From the IMG/VR virus record IMGVR_UViG_3300016665_000824, positions 32,001 to 96,000 of that record: a stretch of 64,000 bases of DNA, one strand, 5' to 3'. The position numbers and the translations under genes are program-made. Shown one piece after another: positions 1 through 63,823 of this stretch. Numbering within the stretch: the first letter of the stretch is position 1; every line of letters starts with the position of its first letter. The notes below the pieces were generated by a model. The model ran no database searches. It had not been told where the DNA came from and worked only from the letters and a program-made list of their open reading frames with translations. This DNA is from a virus.

Positions 1-1756
1 ATATTGAGCTAAATACCTGTGGCTTGCTTGAATCGTAATCATAGACCTTTCGGATCACGCTGTTGTAAGCCTCTTCTCCCGCAAAAATAAATTCAGGACG
101 ATTATCGCCAGCCTTCCTTGTTGTAGTTGGCAAATACGGGTTAAATACAGGGCTTTTAGCAAAAGTAAAACAGCTTTTAAAACTACTCTCACTCTTAATC
201 CAAAAAGGTTCGGAGTCGGTCGGACTAGCAGTAATAATGCCTACAACATATTCAGGATCGATAACCGTAGTGCCATTTTGAGTGATATACGAGGGAGGAA
301 TATTTCCCCTAGCCACAATGTCTTGGGGAATATCAGTGTATTTTTGGACTTCAATCTGAAATGGGAAAGGAGTAGATACGGGATACAGCGATCGTATAGG
401 CGCAATCTCAAAGCCAGACCTCCCGTTAATTGGAATCTTTTTCCAGTCACAAAGCTCGGCTGCATAGCGAGATGTATTGTAAACATTGTCAGAAACTGCG
501 GGTGGAGTACTGTATATGGACTCGTACTTACCTTCCGTCTCTTTTTGGAGTCGGACGTACTTCCATCCACGAATCGTTGTGCCAATTAAATATTTGGCAT
601 TGTCAAGAATGGTCTGAAACCCATTCCCTTTCAGTACATTTGCCGAGTCTGGGTTAATATAAATTGGCGCTACTCTACCTGTGGAGGTGGCGTAAACATT
701 GAAATAGGCAAGAATAGAAGAATATTCATAGGTTACTTCTTGTTCTTCAACCTGAGTCCACCATAAGCTAGGAGAACCATTTAGTTTTAAAACGGTTCTT
801 TTACCCTCGATTGTCCCAAACTCAGCGACATCTACTGCCCTAAATTTATATCCGTAAATACGAGTTAATTCGCTCTGAACAACGCCATCGACAATTACGG
901 TGCGAGTATAAACTTTCTTAGGTCCCGATACGTCAAAATTCATATCAAGCGACTTAAGCGTTCCACTTGCTTCTTTAGATGAAAGTTGACTAGCATCGTC
1001 CCCAGTGTCGCCACCTCCATTCTGGATAACAATTTCTGTTTGAGGGGAAATTGGTAAAAGCAATTTATCTTCTTGGTCGAAAGGATCTTTGGAGAACTTA
1101 CCTGTGATCGCCACGTTGTCGATAATTGGCAGTACAGGACTGCGCTTCCTGCTCCCGTCATCGACGACCAAGTAATCGGGGAAAGCCCAAGAGCCAACCC
1201 CATCTATAGGAAGCATCTTTACAGCATCAACATCAGAAAACCGAACAAAACATCCTAGTCTGCGGCAGTTAGTTTTTAAGATCTCTTCAAAGGTTGTTTC
1301 GAGATTATCTGGGGAGAAAAATATTGCAGGTCCAGAGTAGGCAATACCTAGAAACGCGGCGATCGCTGCCACATTTACGCCAGTGGCATATTTAAACCTT
1401 GAAAAATTATCAGGTTGCACGAACGGGCTAACACTAAACTTTCTCTGGCACTTGGCTTTCCACTTTGAATCAAGGTTGACCACAACCTCATAGGTTTCAA
1501 TATCTCCACGACCATGACGTGATCGCTTGATCGACACCCCACTCGGCATCACGATAAAGCCAATGCCTTCGATATTTACAGTCGTTAAGTTTGGGTATGC
1601 AGTGGCGATCGTATTGGCAAGATCTAAAGTACACCCCTTATAAGTGATCGTCCCCGAAGGATAGTCTTCTAGCTTGTCAGACCACTGCAAATTACCTACT
1701 TGTAGCGGGTAGGGCAATTGAGGGTAACTCGTAAGCTGTTGAGAGATCGTAGGCAT
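1..1756 (-). CDS. Virion structural protein, tail fiber/baseplate-like; 3' partial, continues beyond window start
   Basis: Open minus-strand frame from ATG at 1756 to window edge, not in ORF track because no stop in window; TAATG stop/start overlap with upstream ORF; Ser/Thr/Gly/Asn-rich beta-type composition. Confidence 0.5.
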   Translation of the reverse strand, partial: MPTISQQLTSYPQLPYPLQVGNLQWSDKLEDYPSGTITYKGCTLDLANTIATAYPNLTTVNIEGIGFIVMPSGVSIKRSRHGRGDIETYEVVVNLDSKWKAKCQRKFSVSPFVQPDNFSRFKYATGVNVAAIAAFLGIAYSGPAIFFSPDNLETTFEEILKTNCRRLGCFVRFSDVDAVKMLPIDGVGSWAFPDYLVVDDGSRKRSPVLPIIDNVAITGKFSKDPFDQEDKLLLPISPQTEIVIQNGGGDTGDDASQLSSKEASGTLKSLDMNFDVSGPKKVYTRTVIVDGVVQSELTRIYGYKFRAVDVAEFGTIEGKRTVLKLNGSPSLWWTQVEEQEVTYEYSSILAYFNVYATSTGRVAPIYINPDSANVLKGNGFQTILDNAKYLIGTTIRGWKYVRLQKETEGKYESIYSTPPAVSDNVYNTSRYAAELCDWKKIPINGRSGFEIAPIRSLYPVSTPFPFQIEVQKYTDIPQDIVARGNIPPSYITQNGTTVIDPEYVVGIITASPTDSEPFWIKSESSFKSCFTFAKSPVFNPYLPTTTRKAGDNRPEFIFAGEEAYNSVIRKVYDYDSSKPQVFSSI

Positions 1757-31726: not shown

Positions 31727-32686
31727 ATGTCTGAATACTATTTATACGGCGATCGCGAAGGTAATGCTCTTGATCGGTTAAAAGCTTCTCGCCCTCAGCT
31801 AATCAATAAGCTTTACTACTGGGCTGGCAAACGGCTTGACTATCGGGTTAAGCATTCGCTTATGGCGGAGCAGGATGTTTCCAAGCAGGTTGATCGATAT
31901 CTAGAGGCGATTGCATTTGCTTCGTCGGAAAAGGATCTGCTAAACACGCTCAACAGTTGGAACCTCCTGTCACCTCAAGAGAAGGCGATTATGGCAAAGC
32001 TGTTCCCCTTCAAACCAAATCATCGGTTTGATCCTACAAATTTACAGTTTGAAGGATGGTTTACTGGGTGTAATTGGTACGAATTGAGAAAGGGCGAGTA
32101 CATCACCGCAGAAGAGGAAGTTCTTGACGGCATTGCCTATCAAGGACAGGAAGTAGCGATCATCACAAAGAATGCTTACGAGGCAGAAGTTTTGAACGCC
32201 AAGAATATGATGATTGTTGACGTGGATCTTGAGGGTGATCAGGCGATCGTGCAGAATGCTCAGTTCGCTCTTGACGTACTTCGATCTTTTATTAGCAACA
32301 CAAAAAATTGGGATCTAGGCTTTAGGGTTTACAAAACTGCGGCAGGTTTGAGATATATCTGCACGACCCATGAATTTGAAGCGACAGATCCTCTTAGCGA
32401 CAAGATTATGCGTAATTTACTCGCTGATGATCGCTACCGAGCTTTGTGTAAATTCCAAGATACCTATCGCGCTCGATTAACTCCAAAACCTTGGCGAGCT
32501 TCTGACATTGCGTGGCGTAATCGCGGAGTGTGGGATGTTTCAGGCGAATGGGTGGAATATTTCAGGGTGTGTGACTCGCTTAGCCTCTACGGAAATACTA
32601 ATATCCTTCCCCAGTTCGCCAAGGCGATCGAATACCATGATCGAATCACAAATGTCTTTGCCGATCCAAAACTAATCCTCGCGTAG
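31727..32686 (+). CDS. Hypothetical protein
   Basis: 319-aa ORF; inverted CCACAAA dyad ~30 nt upstream. Confidence 0.5.
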   Translation: MSEYYLYGDREGNALDRLKASRPQLINKLYYWAGKRLDYRVKHSLMAEQDVSKQVDRYLEAIAFASSEKDLLNTLNSWNLLSPQEKAIMAKLFPFKPNHRFDPTNLQFEGWFTGCNWYELRKGEYITAEEEVLDGIAYQGQEVAIITKNAYEAEVLNAKNMMIVDVDLEGDQAIVQNAQFALDVLRSFISNTKNWDLGFRVYKTAAGLRYICTTHEFEATDPLSDKIMRNLLADDRYRALCKFQDTYRARLTPKPWRASDIAWRNRGVWDVSGEWVEYFRVCDSLSLYGNTNILPQFAKAIEYHDRITNVFADPKLILA

Positions 32687-37039: not shown

Positions 37040-38593
37040 TTGGCATTTAGTTGTGCGATCGCTATGGCAAAATTTACAACAGGAGATCAGGCTTCAACTG
37101 CTGCTCTGTCGCGAGTTGACACTCTTCTCCAAACTATAAATACCGACGCAGACTATGCGCTTTGGCGGGAATGGATTTATGACAGGGCGATCGCCAAACT
37201 AGCACTAGGCTTAACTGGCGGAGGTGGAAGCTCCACTTCAATTCTTGCGGGTTTCAAGGCGATCGCTAATGGCACTGGCTACAGTATTGGCGATTTGATA
37301 TTTTTGCGGCAAACAGGAACTAACCAAACCGAATATTACAACGGTACTACAGGTTTAGTTATTACACCTGCCCCACCTAGCAGCGATCTTGGCTCTATTA
37401 TCTCTTCTAGTAATGTTGCTGTTACATCACTTCCTCCATTGCCGTCTGGCGCAAATACCATTGGCGCTATATCAAATGCTAGTTTTGGTATTAGTGGTAG
37501 CTTGCCAGCATTTGCTAGCACACCCACAGTAAATATTGGTACTACTGGCGCGATCGCCACTGATAGCACCTTACAGCAAGTAAGGGACGCGATCAAAGCA
37601 CAGATCGATATCGCCTCAACAATTTGGACAGATAACACAGATACTTTTTATGTACGACGAGATCTGGTAAACGAAGGAACGGGAGTAATCACTGTATCTT
37701 TTACTTTGCCAGACGGTACGGCGGCTACACCTAGCGCTGGACTTAGACCTCTAGCAACCGTAGATAAAGATGTTCTTAGTGATTATTACGATGTATTGAT
37801 TGCGGGTACTGGCTATGCGATCGGGGATTTATTAGCAAGGGTTGCGATCATTGATGCAAACGGTGCTTCTCCAACATCAACATTTATCTGGCTGAATTTG
37901 ACGGCAGGGACAATCCTCGGAACAGCACCTAGTTCTGCAAATATTGAAAGAGCGAACGAAACTATCGGTGCTAGGCAAAGCGGTACATGGAATATCACCA
38001 ATATTAGTGGTACGGTATCACTACCTACGGGAGCCAGTACATCGGCTAATCAGGCTACAGCGATCTCAAGCCTTGGCAGCATTGACGGAAAACTCCCTGC
38101 GAGTTTAGGGGTAAAAACTGCTGCTAATTCACTTGCTGTAACGCTTTCAACGGATGGAATCGCGAGTGGAATTGACACAAAAATTGGCGAAGTCCAAACA
38201 ACTCCAACTGCTAATACTGTTTTGGCGAGATTAAAAAATATTGCTGATGCGTTGGTGTTTGGGGCAAAATCACCAGCTAATAGTATTTCAGTTACCCAAG
38301 CTTTCGCCGCAACATCTACCCTAGCGAATGTGGCTAGTAGTGCGACATCAGTTAGCTTGTTAGCTGCCAACAATAACCGCAAAACAGCAATCATTCTAAA
38401 TGATTCGACTTCAGATTTATACGTTACTCTCAACGCAAGCGCCGCCAGTACGACGAATTATTCATTATTTTTAGCCGCTAAAGTTGGTAACACGCCATCA
38501 TTTTTAGCTATAAATGGTGATGATTATTCGGGCGAAATTCGTGGAATTTGGAGTAGTGCTAATGGTTTCGCAAGAATTACGGAGGTCGTGTAA
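37040..38593 (+). CDS. Tail fiber-like protein
   Basis: 517 aa, Ser/Thr/Gly/Ala/Asn-rich beta-type composition; precedes second fiber-like gene. Confidence 0.55.
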   Translation: MAFSCAIAMAKFTTGDQASTAALSRVDTLLQTINTDADYALWREWIYDRAIAKLALGLTGGGGSSTSILAGFKAIANGTGYSIGDLIFLRQTGTNQTEYYNGTTGLVITPAPPSSDLGSIISSSNVAVTSLPPLPSGANTIGAISNASFGISGSLPAFASTPTVNIGTTGAIATDSTLQQVRDAIKAQIDIASTIWTDNTDTFYVRRDLVNEGTGVITVSFTLPDGTAATPSAGLRPLATVDKDVLSDYYDVLIAGTGYAIGDLLARVAIIDANGASPTSTFIWLNLTAGTILGTAPSSANIERANETIGARQSGTWNITNISGTVSLPTGASTSANQATAISSLGSIDGKLPASLGVKTAANSLAVTLSTDGIASGIDTKIGEVQTTPTANTVLARLKNIADALVFGAKSPANSISVTQAFAATSTLANVASSATSVSLLAANNNRKTAIILNDSTSDLYVTLNASAASTTNYSLFLAAKVGNTPSFLAINGDDYSGEIRGIWSSANGFARITEVV

Positions 38594-39498
38594 TGATTAT
38601 TGTTAATAATTCCACTAGTGCTGCTGGCATTGGGAAAAACTATTTTAAGAATCCCAATTTTCAAGTAATCCAAGGCACTGCATCAGGGACGCTCGCCAAT
38701 TCCACAGCATTACCCACAGCATCACTAGGATACCTAGGTGAGACTGAATGGGGTATTGCGGCGGCGGGTGGCACTCCTGCTTATGCTTTTAGCTCAGCGA
38801 ATGAATCTGTTACCTTTACGGGTGCAGCATCAACTACCGCTATTTATTTGCTTCAAAGACTTGAAAGCAGAGATATTACTACTCTAGCCAACAAACTGGC
38901 GACAATTACTTTTAGTGCTGAGATATCTAATTCGCTGCTTACTTCGGTAATTTGGGAAGTATTTCGCCCTACTACCACTGCTGACACTCATGGCACAATT
39001 GGCACACCTACGCAGACATTGATTGCTAGTGGAACGTTCACCGTAAACTCAACGCTGACAAAGTATAGCGCCACATTTACCCTTCCTGCATTAGCTGCTA
39101 ATGGACTGGAGGTAAGACTAAGAGTAGGGGCGCAAACTTCTGGAACTTGGGTGGTGTCAAGGTTGCAATTAGAAGAAGGTAGTGTTGCTACTAACTTCAT
39201 TTGTGATGATTATTTGACTGAATTGAATCAATGTCAAAGATACTTTAGAAGATTATCAGATTATCTATATGTTTATTTTGGTACTACTGGTGTATTAAAT
39301 AGTGAACGAATGCATTTAAATATGTTTGGTACTACTAGAATTAGAAATTTAATAGCACAAAATTCAATAGGTGGAACTGGAGTTACTATATCAGCAGGAC
39401 TTAATGAAGATTCAACTAGAGCTAATTATATAAATAATGCTGGAGCTGGTTACTATGGTGGCAATCCATTATATACAGTGTCAGCACACATCCCTTAA
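38593..39498 (+). CDS. Tail fiber protein (receptor-binding candidate)
   Basis: 301 aa; [11 protein letters not shown]...LNQCQRYF motif typical of phage tail fibers; AT-rich 3' third. Confidence 0.6.
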
Positions 39499-57397: not shown

Positions 57398-57997
57398 GTG
57401 GTTTCTTGGGAATCTCAAGAACGCTTTGGTTGTTTTTTACACTTTAGTTTCGTAGGAAATTTAGTTATGCTCTCAAGCGAAGAATACATACGCGACAGAC
57501 AAGACTTCGGTTGCTGGGAAGCCCGTATATTTTACTCCCCAGAATTAGATGCCGTTGTTGCGGCAGGTTTTATGGATGGGTTGATCTTCAACAAGGAAGA
57601 ACTCTTCCAGCTAGGCTCATTACTCCTTGATGCCTCAATTAACGTTTCGGGTAAAGACATCTGCCACCTCAATAATCGGACATCGGCGAGAGGTCGTTCT
57701 GACAAGGATTTTTGGCTACAGCGCAAGAATAGATCTGGACTCGTGTATCTAATCAAGGCGATCGGGACTAACTACTACAAAATTGGTAGAACAAAAGATA
57801 TTGAGACTAGATTAGAGACCCTGCAAAAGTCATCTCCATTCGACCTCTCGCTGATTCTTGCCATAGAAACATCAGACTCTTTGGCTCTAGAGAGGTACTT
57901 CCACGATAAGTACAATGATTGTCGAGTTAGGGGTGAGTGGTTTGAGCTAGATGAGTATGCGATCGCTGAATTTATGAGCTACGAGGAGGTCGCGTGA
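57398..57997 (+). CDS. T5orf172 (GIY-YIG-like) domain protein
   Basis: GLVYLIKAIGTNYYKIGRTKDIETRLETL matches T5orf172/MUG113 pattern; start may be internal. Confidence 0.6.
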   Translation: MVSWESQERFGCFLHFSFVGNLVMLSSEEYIRDRQDFGCWEARIFYSPELDAVVAAGFMDGLIFNKEELFQLGSLLLDASINVSGKDICHLNNRTSARGRSDKDFWLQRKNRSGLVYLIKAIGTNYYKIGRTKDIETRLETLQKSSPFDLSLILAIETSDSLALERYFHDKYNDCRVRGEWFELDEYAIAEFMSYEEVA

Positions 57998-60958: not shown

Positions 60959-60983
60959 GCCCACGAGACCCATTCTTGTGGGC
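60959..60983 (-). terminator. Terminator-like hairpin oriented for the minus strand
   Basis: 9-bp stem GCCCACGAG / CTTGTGGGC with A-tracts both sides; directly after DnaB stop. Confidence 0.3.
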
Positions 60984-61559
60984 AAAAACACACAAAATTA
61001 CAACAAAACTATGCAAGAAGAAATCTCACAACAGGAAATCGCTGCGATCGCAGCCGCAAAACTGAAAAGAATGCAGCGATCGCAACAACAAGAGCCGATA
61101 ACGAAGGTCGAGCCAAAAACTCCAAGTCCCGCACCAGCAAAACAGTCAAAATCAGCAACAAACAGCTACTGGAACAAACCTCAAAGCAGCATCGACATCG
61201 TGAAAAACCCCAAGCACGTTGCCGATATTTACACCATGACCCCGTGGATACCCCAGCCACAGGTAGATGATATCTGCGCGATCGCCGAAAGACCCTACGG
61301 CGACTGGATAGACCTCGAAGCGCAGCATATCGAAGGCAAGTGGGATAGGCAAAGATTCATTGAGTCAGCCTATAACTGGCCTTTCCGCGCCAAGATGCGA
61401 TGTGTTGAAATTTCTGAGGACGGACTGATGGCAACAGTATCCGTCTCAGGAGTCCGCAAACGATTACCACTAGTGTGTTTATGGGAGATGAATGAAATAG
61501 TTGACACTATGACTAATAGTGAGTATGATGAATCTTGGTTTCAGGTAAGACAATTATGA
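60978..61559 (+). CDS. Hypothetical protein
   Basis: 193-aa ORF; 3' end contains consensus promoter for next gene. Confidence 0.5.
   Translation: MGKNTQNYNKTMQEEISQQEIAAIAAAKLKRMQRSQQQEPITKVEPKTPSPAPAKQSKSATNSYWNKPQSSIDIVKNPKHVADIYTMTPWIPQPQVDDICAIAERPYGDWIDLEAQHIEGKWDRQRFIESAYNWPFRAKMRCVEISEDGLMATVSVSGVRKRLPLVCLWEMNEIVDTMTNSEYDESWFQVRQL
61501..61529 (+). promoter_or_regulatory. Sigma70-type promoter, consensus TTGACA-17-TATGAT (copy 1)
   Basis: TTGACA 61501-61506, 17-nt spacer, TATGAT 61524-61529; ATG at 61556. Confidence 0.6.
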
Positions 61560-61870
61560 CAAAGACTTTAATCTGTAGAGAGATTAAGTGCCTGTATTTC
61601 GACGTTTCAGACCCAATGAGTTCTGGTTGTAAATTCTACGAAAGCGCTCGTCAATGTCACCTACTGTCTGGGATGCTTTCTACTGAAAAGACAGCACTGG
61701 CGACTGACTACGAAATAATTGCTGAAGATTTGTATACGGCTGAAGACCTGATCAGGGTTGAAAACGATTTTTACATTAAATGTTCTGAAAAGTATTTACG
61801 CGATTGTGAGCTTCAGGGGCTTACACCTGAACCCGTAAGAGAAAATGTTCGAGCATGGTTTCGTAGATGA
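61556..61870 (+). CDS. Cys-containing small hypothetical protein
   Basis: ATG at 61556 preferred over TTG at 61535. Confidence 0.5.
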   Translation: MTKTLICREIKCLYFDVSDPMSSGCKFYESARQCHLLSGMLSTEKTALATDYEIIAEDLYTAEDLIRVENDFYIKCSEKYLRDCELQGLTPEPVRENVRAWFRR

Positions 61871-61957
61871 CTCCAGCAACTAAAGCAAGATTCACAAATA
61901 GGCGATCGCCTTCTCTGCCTCGTTTTTTAACATTTTGTGGCAGTTAAAAGAAAATGT

Positions 61958-61986
61958 TTGACAGTATGCCTAGTAGTGTGTATGAT
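61958..61986 (+). promoter_or_regulatory. Sigma70-type promoter, consensus TTGACA-17-TATGAT (copy 2)
   Basis: TTGACA 61958-61963, 17-nt spacer, TATGAT 61981-61986; ATG at 62012; ~65 bp similar to copy 1. Confidence 0.6.
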
Positions 61987-62011
61987 GGTATTTAGTTTCA
62001 GGTAAAACAAT

Positions 62012-62530
62012 ATGACGAATAGCTTGGCTGTGACCTACCAATCGCTCCCACAGAAAGAACAGCTTGAGATACTAGCAGGAGTATCACACCTTATGATAAA
62101 GGTAATGGCAGGTAAAATCCCAACAACAGAAGAGATGGACTTGGCTTCAAAAGCCCAGACCCATCCAAGCCTATTTTTAAAATGCTTCTCTGCCGAACTT
62201 ATGGGAGAGGAGTGGAGACCAAAGCTATTGCCTCAAGGCGGAGAAGGGTATATTATTCGCTGGAAATCCGATGAATACGAAGAGGTAGAGACCGACTCCT
62301 ATCCCTTTAAAAAGAGGGTTTACAAAGAAGAGGGCAATGGACTTGAAATCCAAAGCTACGAGCAGGCGATCGCCAATTGTGAATTTCTAAATAAGCAATA
62401 CCCAGAGAGGACTTACTGGCACTTCTGGGTAAACCAAGACATCCTCAACAACGCAGAAAGCGAGGGTCTTCAACTCATAGACACTGTTGCTCAGCATCTC
62501 TTTGAGGCTCTATCACAGGCTCATGGTTAG
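62012..62530 (+). CDS. Hypothetical protein
   Basis: 172-aa ORF preceded by duplicated consensus promoter. Confidence 0.55.
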   Translation: MTNSLAVTYQSLPQKEQLEILAGVSHLMIKVMAGKIPTTEEMDLASKAQTHPSLFLKCFSAELMGEEWRPKLLPQGGEGYIIRWKSDEYEEVETDSYPFKKRVYKEEGNGLEIQSYEQAIANCEFLNKQYPERTYWHFWVNQDILNNAESEGLQLIDTVAQHLFEALSQAHG

Positions 62531-62533
62531 TTT

Positions 62534-62824
62534 ATGACCCCAGAAACTAGAGCGCGATTCAAAGAATGGGCGATCGCCTACTGGAAGAAAAATCCAAAGT
62601 TACTGAAGCCACCCGATGACTTTCTCACGCAAGGACAGCAGTTGGCGATCGCTATCTACCATGCCATTCCCGCCGATGGGAAGTTTATTAAAGCTGATGC
62701 GATCGCTACTAAGCTCAAACGCAAAACCAGACAAATAGAAGAGATTCTGGGGCTAATCAAAGAGCCGTGGCATCTCAAGTCAAGTAAAAACAACAAGGAA
62801 GGAGGATATACGAGAAATGAGTGA
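62534..62824 (+). CDS. Small hypothetical protein
   Basis: 96-aa ORF. Confidence 0.5.
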   Translation: MTPETRARFKEWAIAYWKKNPKLLKPPDDFLTQGQQLAIAIYHAIPADGKFIKADAIATKLKRKTRQIEEILGLIKEPWHLKSSKNNKEGGYTRNE

Positions 62825-63089
62825 CACAGTTGGTTTGATTTTTGGTAAGGAAGATAGCAGGACAGAGCAGGAAATCTCTGAGCTTGCGGAGGTCGTAAAA
62901 GCGGCTGGAATTAAGAGAAACCCTGCCATGTTTGCAAGATTTATTTACACACTCGACAAGACAAAAACCTGTCACCCGTCGATTGACCGTGAAGCCTTTC
63001 TGCTAACACTTCAAGAAGTATGGGAAGAGAAGGGACTCCAAGGACTTTCTCTCGCTGAAGAAATATATCAAAGAGGTTTTACAAGATGA
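62817..63089 (+). CDS. Small hypothetical protein
   Basis: 90-aa ORF. Confidence 0.5.
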   Translation: MSDTVGLIFGKEDSRTEQEISELAEVVKAAGIKRNPAMFARFIYTLDKTKTCHPSIDREAFLLTLQEVWEEKGLQGLSLAEEIYQRGFTR

Positions 63090-63823
63090 TTGAAAGGCAA
63101 GTTAAACTGCTGGTTCTAGACAAAGACGGTACACTCGTTCGCCCCAAATCTGGCAATACCTTCGTCCAGCACCCCGAAGATCAGGAGCTAATCGAAGGAG
63201 TGGCTGAAGCTATTCAGAGGTATGTTGCTGATGGATGGCAGTTGGCGATCGCGTCAAATCAGGGTGGATGCGAAGTGCGATGGTGTCACCCCGCCGAATT
63301 ACCTGTAGGTAGTTACTGCAATGTAGATAACATTGCCATCAAGGTTGAATACCTTCAAGACACTGGTGAGTTTATACTCGTAAATGGGCATCACCCACTA
63401 CCAAAAACTAGGTTTGCGAAGTTCCAATACAAGACTCTCGGCATAGCGATCGCAGAGATGCAGTATGCGATGAAGCTGATCGGCATTCAGTATCATGGTC
63501 TATTCTGTCCAGACATGCAAGGGAATGAATGCTACATGACTTCGGACTTTGCTGCTCCGCCATTACACAAGGTTGATAGATACAAACACTTAATAGGCTC
63601 GTTCCGTAAGCCCAGTGGTGGAATGTTGCTAGCATTAAAGCAGCACTTTGAAACACATCTTGATGATGTTGATCGGCTGCTCATGATCGGCGATCGTCCC
63701 GAAGATTTGGGATCGGCTCAAGCCGCAGGATTCGATTTTGTGTGGGCAGAAGACTGGCGAAATAACGAACTAGACAAAGTTCTGCCCTACAGGAGCGAAG
63801 AATGGATCGCTCTGAACTCCTAA
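63086..63823 (+). CDS. HAD-superfamily phosphatase (polynucleotide 3'-phosphatase/GmhB-like)
   Basis: LVLDKDGTL (DxDGT motif I), IASNQ, MIGDRPEDLGSAQAAGF. Confidence 0.7.
   Translation: MIERQVKLLVLDKDGTLVRPKSGNTFVQHPEDQELIEGVAEAIQRYVADGWQLAIASNQGGCEVRWCHPAELPVGSYCNVDNIAIKVEYLQDTGEFILVNGHHPLPKTRFAKFQYKTLGIAIAEMQYAMKLIGIQYHGLFCPDMQGNECYMTSDFAAPPLHKVDRYKHLIGSFRKPSGGMLLALKQHFETHLDDVDRLLMIGDRPEDLGSAQAAGFDFVWAEDWRNNELDKVLPYRSEEWIALNS

Follow-up and report, generated by a model that had tools for sequence, protein, structure and literature searches.

Among the described systems closest to the locus reported here are the PeSL elements of T4-type phages, in which a strong sigma-70 promoter, a stem-loop terminator, a Shine-Dalgarno motif and a start codon are combined (Arbiol et al. 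2010, PMC2839356; Comeau et al. 2014, PMC4122927). PeSLs are found on either side of orphan genes in hyperplastic regions, and a role in gene shuffling has been proposed for them (PMC2839356, PMC4122927). In PMC3029335, phage mosaicism is attributed, under the Hendrix/Hatfull model, to illegitimate recombination followed by selection, and a moron is a gene that, together with its own promoter and terminator, has been inserted between genes that are adjacent in relatives. Here we analyze 64,000 nt of virus DNA (positions 32,001 to 96,000 of the IMG/VR record IMGVR_UViG_3300016665_000824; hereafter, the window), presumably from a phage of cyanobacteria, in which a promoter-like cassette of 60 nt occurs twice, each time directly in front of a small gene. 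The cassette appears to be a promoter module of the sigma-70/SigA type, and it was probably duplicated by illegitimate, unequal recombination between two related phages.

Self-comparison of the window aligns positions 61495-61554 (copy 1) with 61952-62011 (copy 2), with 48 of 60 nt identical at an offset of 457 nt, and the sequence TTGACA-17 nt-TATGAT is exact in both. In copy 1 (plus strand, 61495..61555, denoted P1 when regarded as a promoter) the -35 hexamer occupies 61501-61506 and the -10 hexamer 61524-61529, with a 17-nt spacer between them, followed by AGGT at 61543-61546 and by the ATG of a small gene, ORF-B, at 61556. In copy 2 (P2; plus strand, 61952..62011, non-coding) the -35 is found at 61958-61963, the -10 at 61981-61986, a TAG at 61993-61995, AGGT at 62000-62003 and the ATG of a second small gene, ORF-C, at 62012. 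The leaders after the -10, GTTTCAGGTAAGACAAT and GTTTCAGGTAAAACAAT, each consist of a short variable stretch and GTTTCAGGTAA[G/A]ACAAT; the start codons follow 26 nt (ORF-B) and 25 nt (ORF-C) past the -10, and it is at these codons that the similarity breaks off sharply. The positions of the two elements (61501-61529 and 61958-61986), the similar leaders with an ATG about 25 nt later and the placement of the first copy within the 3' end of the open reading frame 60978..61559 (ORF-A) are as given in the initial annotation; the copy lies in the last 20 codons of that frame. The description of the copies as near-identical goes too far, as they are 80% identical and the longest exact run common to them is 11 nt.

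The pattern TTGACA-17-TATGAT, with at most one mismatch, has only these two sites in the 64 kb, both strands included, compared to 0.23 expected, and a 30-nt degenerate consensus of the cassette, with up to three mismatches, did not occur in 100 shuffles. Over the 48 positions shared by the copies, the next best ungapped match elsewhere in the window scores 26/48; the window holds two copies and no more. When the window was scanned for TTGACA-16..18-TATAAT with at least 11 of 12 matches, the plus-strand sites were copies 1 and 2 only, and there was one minus-strand site, at 39237, with about one expected. The latter reads TTGACA-17-AATAAT and is located inside the plus-strand ORF 38593..39498. 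Beyond about 6 nt upstream of the -35, no significant homology between the copies was detected (17/27, equaled by 16% of shuffles), and a claim that some 25 nt of the ORF-A tail precede copy 2 was dropped on these grounds.

The conservation of the cassette was explored in contigs retrieved for 12 clusters of ORF-A homologues, which yielded 12 distinct cassette sequences for comparison. Searches with a cassette profile located a single copy per relative, in each case at the ORF-A 3' end. Two cassettes occur only in the lineage of the window, that is, in L002 (the 134-kb ENA metagenome contig ERZ27292652:k141_20893, which is the source and is identical to the window over their overlap) and in its sister strain, L003. 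Pattern scans of IMG/VR returned no cassette beyond one contig that was already known, and a metagenome scan with an ORF-A profile added only two loci. TTGACA and the 17-nt spacing are invariant in 12 of 12 lineages, and the -10 is TATGAT in ten of them and TATCAT in the other two. Start codons are preceded by a leader of the form TAGTTTC[A/G]G...AAAC.. except in the L001 type, where the spacer is different and the ATG follows the -10 at a distance of just 8 nt. Copy 1 is the positional orthologue of the single cassette in all relatives; it is the ancestral, conserved element of the family, a point that the initial annotation had missed.

Because the cassette overlaps a gene in most lineages, its conservation has to be set against that of the encoded peptide. 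The ORF-A tail reads VD[TI]xANSVYD in the 12 homologue clusters, with VD encoded by GTTGAC and YD by TATGAT. The ORF-A stop is found after the -35 (L017, L001), after YD (L019) or after YDG[ND] (L004, L007, L018), and is read through in the window; since its position varies in this way, the bases of the cassette are kept whether they are coding or not, and the non-coding copy 2 retains the conserved bases as well. Third codon positions are invariant in 8 of 33 codons upstream, as against 4 of 4 inside the hexamers (by a rough chance estimate 0.24^4, about 0.003), and the TATCAT variant replaces Asp with His, yet keeps the TAnnnT core. Judged from these patterns, coding constraint does not explain the conservation of the cassette. 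The stretch from ORF-A to the conserved gene G is hypervariable, and the first gene behind the cassette belongs to 10 unrelated families in the 12 lineages; given such diversity in this first slot, the cassette marks the place at which the conserved replication genes (Rep, DnaB, ORF-A) give way to a variable block of small genes. L003 and the source contig disagree at only 16 of 3755 aligned bases, of which 11 are clustered together, and one of the remaining, scattered differences makes the copy-1 -35 read TTGATA in L003 (L003:3742-3747, equivalent to window 61501-61506); the change is synonymous in ORF-A and could be due to chance or to down-tuning of P1.

The best reading of each cassette is that of a putative host sigma-70/SigA "type 1" promoter with a short leader, forming a module for the start of both transcription and translation. 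The -35 matches the consensus at 6 of 6 positions in both copies, and TATGAT matches at 5 of 6, at a spacing of 17 nt. Group-1 (primary) sigma factors of cyanobacteria recognize promoters of the E. coli type, TTGACA/TATAAT (PMC2758279), and it is on this basis that the cassette is read as a promoter for the host RNA polymerase. The elements annotated as promoters in front of two small genes are, accordingly, very good sigma-70-type matches, with hexamers and spacing invariant in 12 lineages apart from the TATCAT of two. Transcription would start about 7 nt past the -10 (for P1, at about 61536-61538), which would leave a leader of about 18-20 nt, and AGGT, 8-9 nt before the ATG and complementary to the 16S rRNA 3' end, may play the Shine-Dalgarno role.

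In the scheme that we favor, P1 and P2 would both serve the host RNA polymerase as start sites. No terminator was found between ORF-B and P2 (fold z = 0.11; no plus-strand site in a terminator scan), and ORF-C and the later genes would for this reason be fed by both promoters, with transcripts from P1 passing through ORF-B and P2 into genes C, D, E and F, and P2 adding to them. Transcription of ORF-B would come from P1 and from whatever read-through arrives from the replication genes. Co-regulation of the two small genes, which the initial annotation had suggested to be tight, is plausible. A 13-nt inverted repeat with one mismatch (61529-61541/61882-61894; TGAATCTTGGTTT / AAAGCAAGATTCA) brackets ORF-B; its left arm is the copy-1-specific stretch after the -10 and lies mostly upstream of the predicted P1 start, its right arm is located in the gene-D relic described below, and together they form the closing helix of a predicted 61530-61935 fold. 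About five such pairs are expected by chance in 4 kb, by a rough estimate, and as the left arm would be mostly untranscribed from P1, the repeat is probably coincidental.

Two relics, one of gene D and one of the ORF-A tail, bear on the origin of the second copy. Positions 61867..61916 (plus strand), directly behind ORF-B, are a pseudogene fragment of the 5' end of gene D, the intact resident copy of which begins at 62534. This is a second repeat of the same event, found by blastn and missed in the initial annotation. The relic is identical to the resident D at 40 of 51 positions and to the D gene of L007 at 42 of 51, and none of 1000 shuffles was as good. One nucleotide is deleted and TGG has become TAG in comparison with every intact D gene, and these changes mark the relic as a dead fragment. 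Its ATG overlaps the ORF-B stop (ATGA), and the first-slot genes of relatives abut an intact D in the same way as ORF-B abuts the relic. The frame of the relic is still open for 26 codons (MTPATKARFTNRRSPSLPRFLTFCGS and a stop; 61867-61947), is ATGA-coupled to ORF-B and stops 5 nt short of copy 2; a meaningless peptide may be made from it.

Copy 2, in turn, still reads as an ORF-A tail with a TAG stop (MFDSMPSSVYDGI and the stop) in the ORF-A frame, and it is 86% identical to the cassette of L018 versus 79% to copy 1. Both arrangements of the parental type are present in relatives. L004 is organized as A-P-C'-D'-F', with a single cassette and C' directly behind it, and L026 as A-P-B', again with a single cassette; the L004 cassette is like copy 1 upstream of the -35 and like copy 2 downstream of the -10. 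On the basis of these data, we propose that two parents, A-P-B-D and A-P-C-D, would have been joined out of register in a single recombination step. The first parent would have been broken some 50 nt inside D and the second just upstream of P, giving A-P1-B-(D relic)-35 nt junction-P2-C-D, the junction being the roughly 35 nt between the D relic and copy 2 (61917..61951, plus strand). An assembly chimera was ruled out, as the same proteins and map are present in independent ENA, Logan and JGI assemblies and the relic contains a frameshift and a stop. L003 shares both cassettes and the D relic. The view of the repeat as recombination-prone is not well supported, considering the short exact run between the copies and their retention in the sister strain, and the repeat is more aptly regarded as the outcome of an earlier unequal recombination event involving two phage variants than as a proven hot substrate.

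Several observations weigh against a one-step recombination that duplicated a promoter. The 35-nt junction resembles neither flank significantly, scoring 11/35 against the part of D that would come next and 19/39 (reached by 32% of shuffles) against the 3' end of ORF-A. The exact parent A-P-B-D was not found in IMG/VR, and in L026 the gene after B' is not D. Only 12 of 60 positions differ between the cassette copies and 11 of 51 between the relic and D, so few that identity alone is not statistically decisive between two diverged parents and an old duplication in place. As for the promoter, its use is deduced from sequence and conservation only, and the 3' half of the spacer (GCTAATAGTGTG) is conserved beyond what promoter function by itself would call for, which may mean that a regulator site overlaps it.

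A simple in-place tandem duplication would have left homologous content in both units, and ORF-B and ORF-C are unrelated: no relationship between the two proteins was detected, and paralogy was rejected. A two-step history would consist of a tandem duplication in place, from the ORF-A tail to the D 5' end, and a later homologous exchange by which B replaced the gene of the first copy. Illegitimate recombination between sister genomes often gives rise to tandem duplications in phages, the final map would be the same, and the flanking cassette and D 5' end would serve as homology arms for the swap. Such a history is nevertheless quite unlikely, in our estimate; it needs two events where one suffices, and the greater closeness of copy 2 to the cassette of another lineage than to copy 1 fits two diverged parents better. 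It is also unlikely, if less so, that the promoter module was itself the recombination substrate, as a PeSL-like mobile regulatory cassette, with ORF-B inserted (e.g. as a promoter-gene mini-circle) by homologous cassette exchange, a mechanism put forward for T4-type phages. ORFan192 in RB49 shows this topology, being flanked by two PeSLs where phi1 has one (PMC2839356). Like a PeSL, the cassette has an AT-rich upstream stretch, sigma-70 boxes, a Shine-Dalgarno motif and a start codon, and it borders a hypervariable region in which the unrelated first genes begin at a leader/ATG junction. The right junction of the insertion, on the other hand, falls within gene D, with 35 nt of unrelated sequence behind it, which argues that the insertion was illegitimate and not cassette-to-cassette. 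Furthermore, the 10 other lineages have one cassette per genome rather than many dispersed ones, there is no stable stem-loop or terminator, and an 11-nt exact run is the longest that the copies could offer for exchange. A broader version of this idea, which we consider doubtful, is that the conserved module and the conserved D 5' end constitute a dedicated gene-exchange slot, a PeSL-like hotspot without the stem-loop that captures small genes behind a strong host-type promoter, in which case the double cassette would be an intermediate resolvable either way by recombination between the copies.

A different objection concerns the promoter itself. The string might be kept for the C-terminal peptide of ORF-A, as a site for a regulator or replication protein, or as an RNA element, and the conserved tail ...VDxxANSVYD encoded in most lineages, the unusually conserved 3' half of the spacer and the adjoining replication genes could all be taken in this sense. 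We nonetheless regard this as very improbable, because the string is conserved where it is non-coding (L017, copy 2) and where ORF-A stops vary, and the searches for an alternative role gave nothing. RNAalifold over seven lineages returned a consensus fold of -1.9 kcal/mol with no conserved structure, the cassette has no Rfam match at E <= 1, and hairpins in the -35..-10 region are no better than those of shuffles (-4 to -10 kcal/mol, z -1.9 to +0.5), with none in copy 2. The spacer motif is not reused as an operator beyond chance, as GCTAATAGTGTG with up to two mismatches has 7 matches in the window compared to 3.9 expected, and no iteron-like array is present. Three of the GCTAATAGTGTG matches, with two mismatches each, are found at 38210-38344 (plus strand), 66 and 57 nt apart, inside ORF 37040..38593; they are probably a peptide repeat (ANS/ASS...) and not regulatory. 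Duplication of a promoter module by unequal recombination between two phages remains the reading that we prefer.

The genes around the cassettes are all on the plus strand. ORF-A (60978..61559), which follows DnaB, is a conserved gene with a predicted product of 193 aa from GTG 60978 or 182 aa from ATG 61011, its last 20 or so codons being cassette copy 1. Its usual TAG stop is TGG in the window (61536-61538), as a result of which the frame reads through to a TGA that overlaps the ATG of ORF-B. Among relatives, a long ORF-A (164-193 aa) can be distinguished from a short form (123-136 aa) that is linked to a gene of about 324 aa between DnaB and ORF-A. This arrangement is seen in several relatives (L003:2419-3800, L023:1596-2944, L024:61-1424), and the extra gene has faint matches to CoiA-type nucleases in Pfam.

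ORF-B (61556..61870) encodes 104 aa with a Cys-rich N-terminus and is missing from most relatives. A word-index protein search returned no homologue, and a distant one is encoded in the first slot of L026 (L026:814-1137; 34% identity over 89 aa, E 2e-12), with no further homologues found in IMG/VR. The two proteins share the N-terminal pattern ICxxIxCxYF-(8)-GC-xxY-(5)-CHL, and the Cys motif is suggestive of a small metal-binding domain. ORF-C (62012..62530) encodes 172 aa and has a homologue, P0002, with 63% identity; public gene calls begin ORF-C at an internal ATG (145 aa; L002:9920-10438 for the long form). The start at 62012 is likelier, since P0002 aligns over 99% of the 172-aa form. Pfam, PHROGs and PADLOC gave no indication of function for either protein, and the AlphaFold models are too poor for fold assignment, with predicted local distance difference test (pLDDT) scores of 44 for ORF-B and 62 for ORF-C. 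Foldseek found nothing significant for either model. The top weak matches of the ORF-C model are PsaD chains of photosystem I (E 0.09-1, template modeling (TM) score about 0.25-0.3, 20-28% identity over about 75 columns), and a PsaD-like identity was rejected as far below significance and without support at the sequence level. Gene D (62534..62824; 96 aa) is intact and a conserved member of the variable region.

The window appears to derive from an uncultured, HIP1-rich tailed phage, the presumed host of which is a cyanobacterium. The HIP1 octamer, GCGATCGC, is a hallmark of cyanobacterial DNA and occurs 139 times in the 64 kb, compared to 0.7 expected from base composition, and it is from this excess that the host is deduced; all related contigs have similar densities (13-36 per 5-14 kb). 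Head genes (major head protein, head protease, portal) are encoded on the minus strand, and a Rha regulator and a Dam-type methylase are present as well. The early/replication block on the plus strand consists, in order, of genes for an XRE-type helix-turn-helix protein, a GIY-YIG/T5orf172 protein, a Rep/DnaD-like protein and DnaB, followed by ORF-A and genes B, C, D, E and F, the last (63086-63823) encoding a HAD/PNK-type phosphatase. The GIY-YIG/T5orf172 (MUG113) gene, at 57398-57997, is directly upstream of the Rep-like gene and overlaps it, and is possibly a homing-endonuclease-type element in the replication module; in relatives of the L001 type, the Rep-like protein instead bears HNH domains. 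In the L018:1482-2382 and L024:2433-2624 regions the phosphatase is cut to a fragment of about 61-63 aa; in L018 an HNH_3 endonuclease gene comes next, as if a homing endonuclease had disrupted the phosphatase gene. The phages in INPHARED have no DNA match to the window, and the DnaB protein is less than 28% identical to that of any cultured phage. No plasmid matches the window, and GTDB representative genomes returned nothing by protein or by cassette pattern.

With these results, a well-supported candidate promoter and leader can be named in freshwater cyanobacterial phages of an uncultured family for which we know of no previously described regulatory elements. The 60-nt cassette, as a compact, strongly consensus promoter joined to a predicted ribosome-binding module, could be tried as an expression part in cyanobacteria. 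The locus is also a very legible molecular fossil of gene gain, in which relics of both flanks trace the gain to two variants joined out of register, and metagenomes still contain both of the parental-type arrangements. The process that it records would be ordinary phage mosaic evolution, with no new mechanism; the case is clean and instructive rather than surprising, and the current understanding stands.

Compared to known systems, the cassette is like sigma-70/SigA type 1 promoters in having TTGACA and a TATAAT-like -10 at 17-nt spacing, and unlike them in that it is phage-borne, overlaps the end of a coding gene and is known here by its sequence. With PeSLs it shares the stop codon of the upstream gene, the AT-rich stretch, the -35/-10 boxes of a sigma-70 promoter, the Shine-Dalgarno motif and the start codon, all recognizable at the sequence level, as well as the association with hypervariable regions and orphan genes, including one such gene placed between two modules in a phage whose relative has just one. 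It differs from PeSLs in having no stable stem-loop or terminator and in copy number, as PeSLs number about 50 dispersed copies, in contrast to one cassette per relative genome and two in the 64-kb window plus 8 kb beyond. The junction of the duplication is likewise illegitimate, inside gene D, and not cassette-to-cassette, and the carrier is an uncultured cyanobacterial phage rather than a T4-type myovirus. Going by its sequence features, the cassette would work like the promoter half of a PeSL and is not a member of the PeSL family. ORF-B resembles a moron in that it sits, with a promoter, between elements that are adjacent in L004, where the cassette directly precedes C'. The moron reading fails on the missing terminator after ORF-B; in addition, the gene's "own" promoter is the resident family promoter, the extra copy having arrived with the neighboring allele, and the gene-D relic reveals how the insertion arose. 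A fixed promoter followed by a slot with a lineage-specific first gene also recalls the integron platform, with its Pc promoter and attI capture site, and integron-like capture was rejected, as no integrase is adjacent, the variable genes are not followed by an attC-like repeat and the first-slot genes abut D. The closest correspondence is with the mosaicism described by Hendrix and Hatfull, from which we see no essential difference. Here, too, an out-of-register join without homology at the junction has left a truncated gene fragment behind, and the surviving junctions respect gene and regulatory boundaries; what sets this example apart is its unusual legibility.

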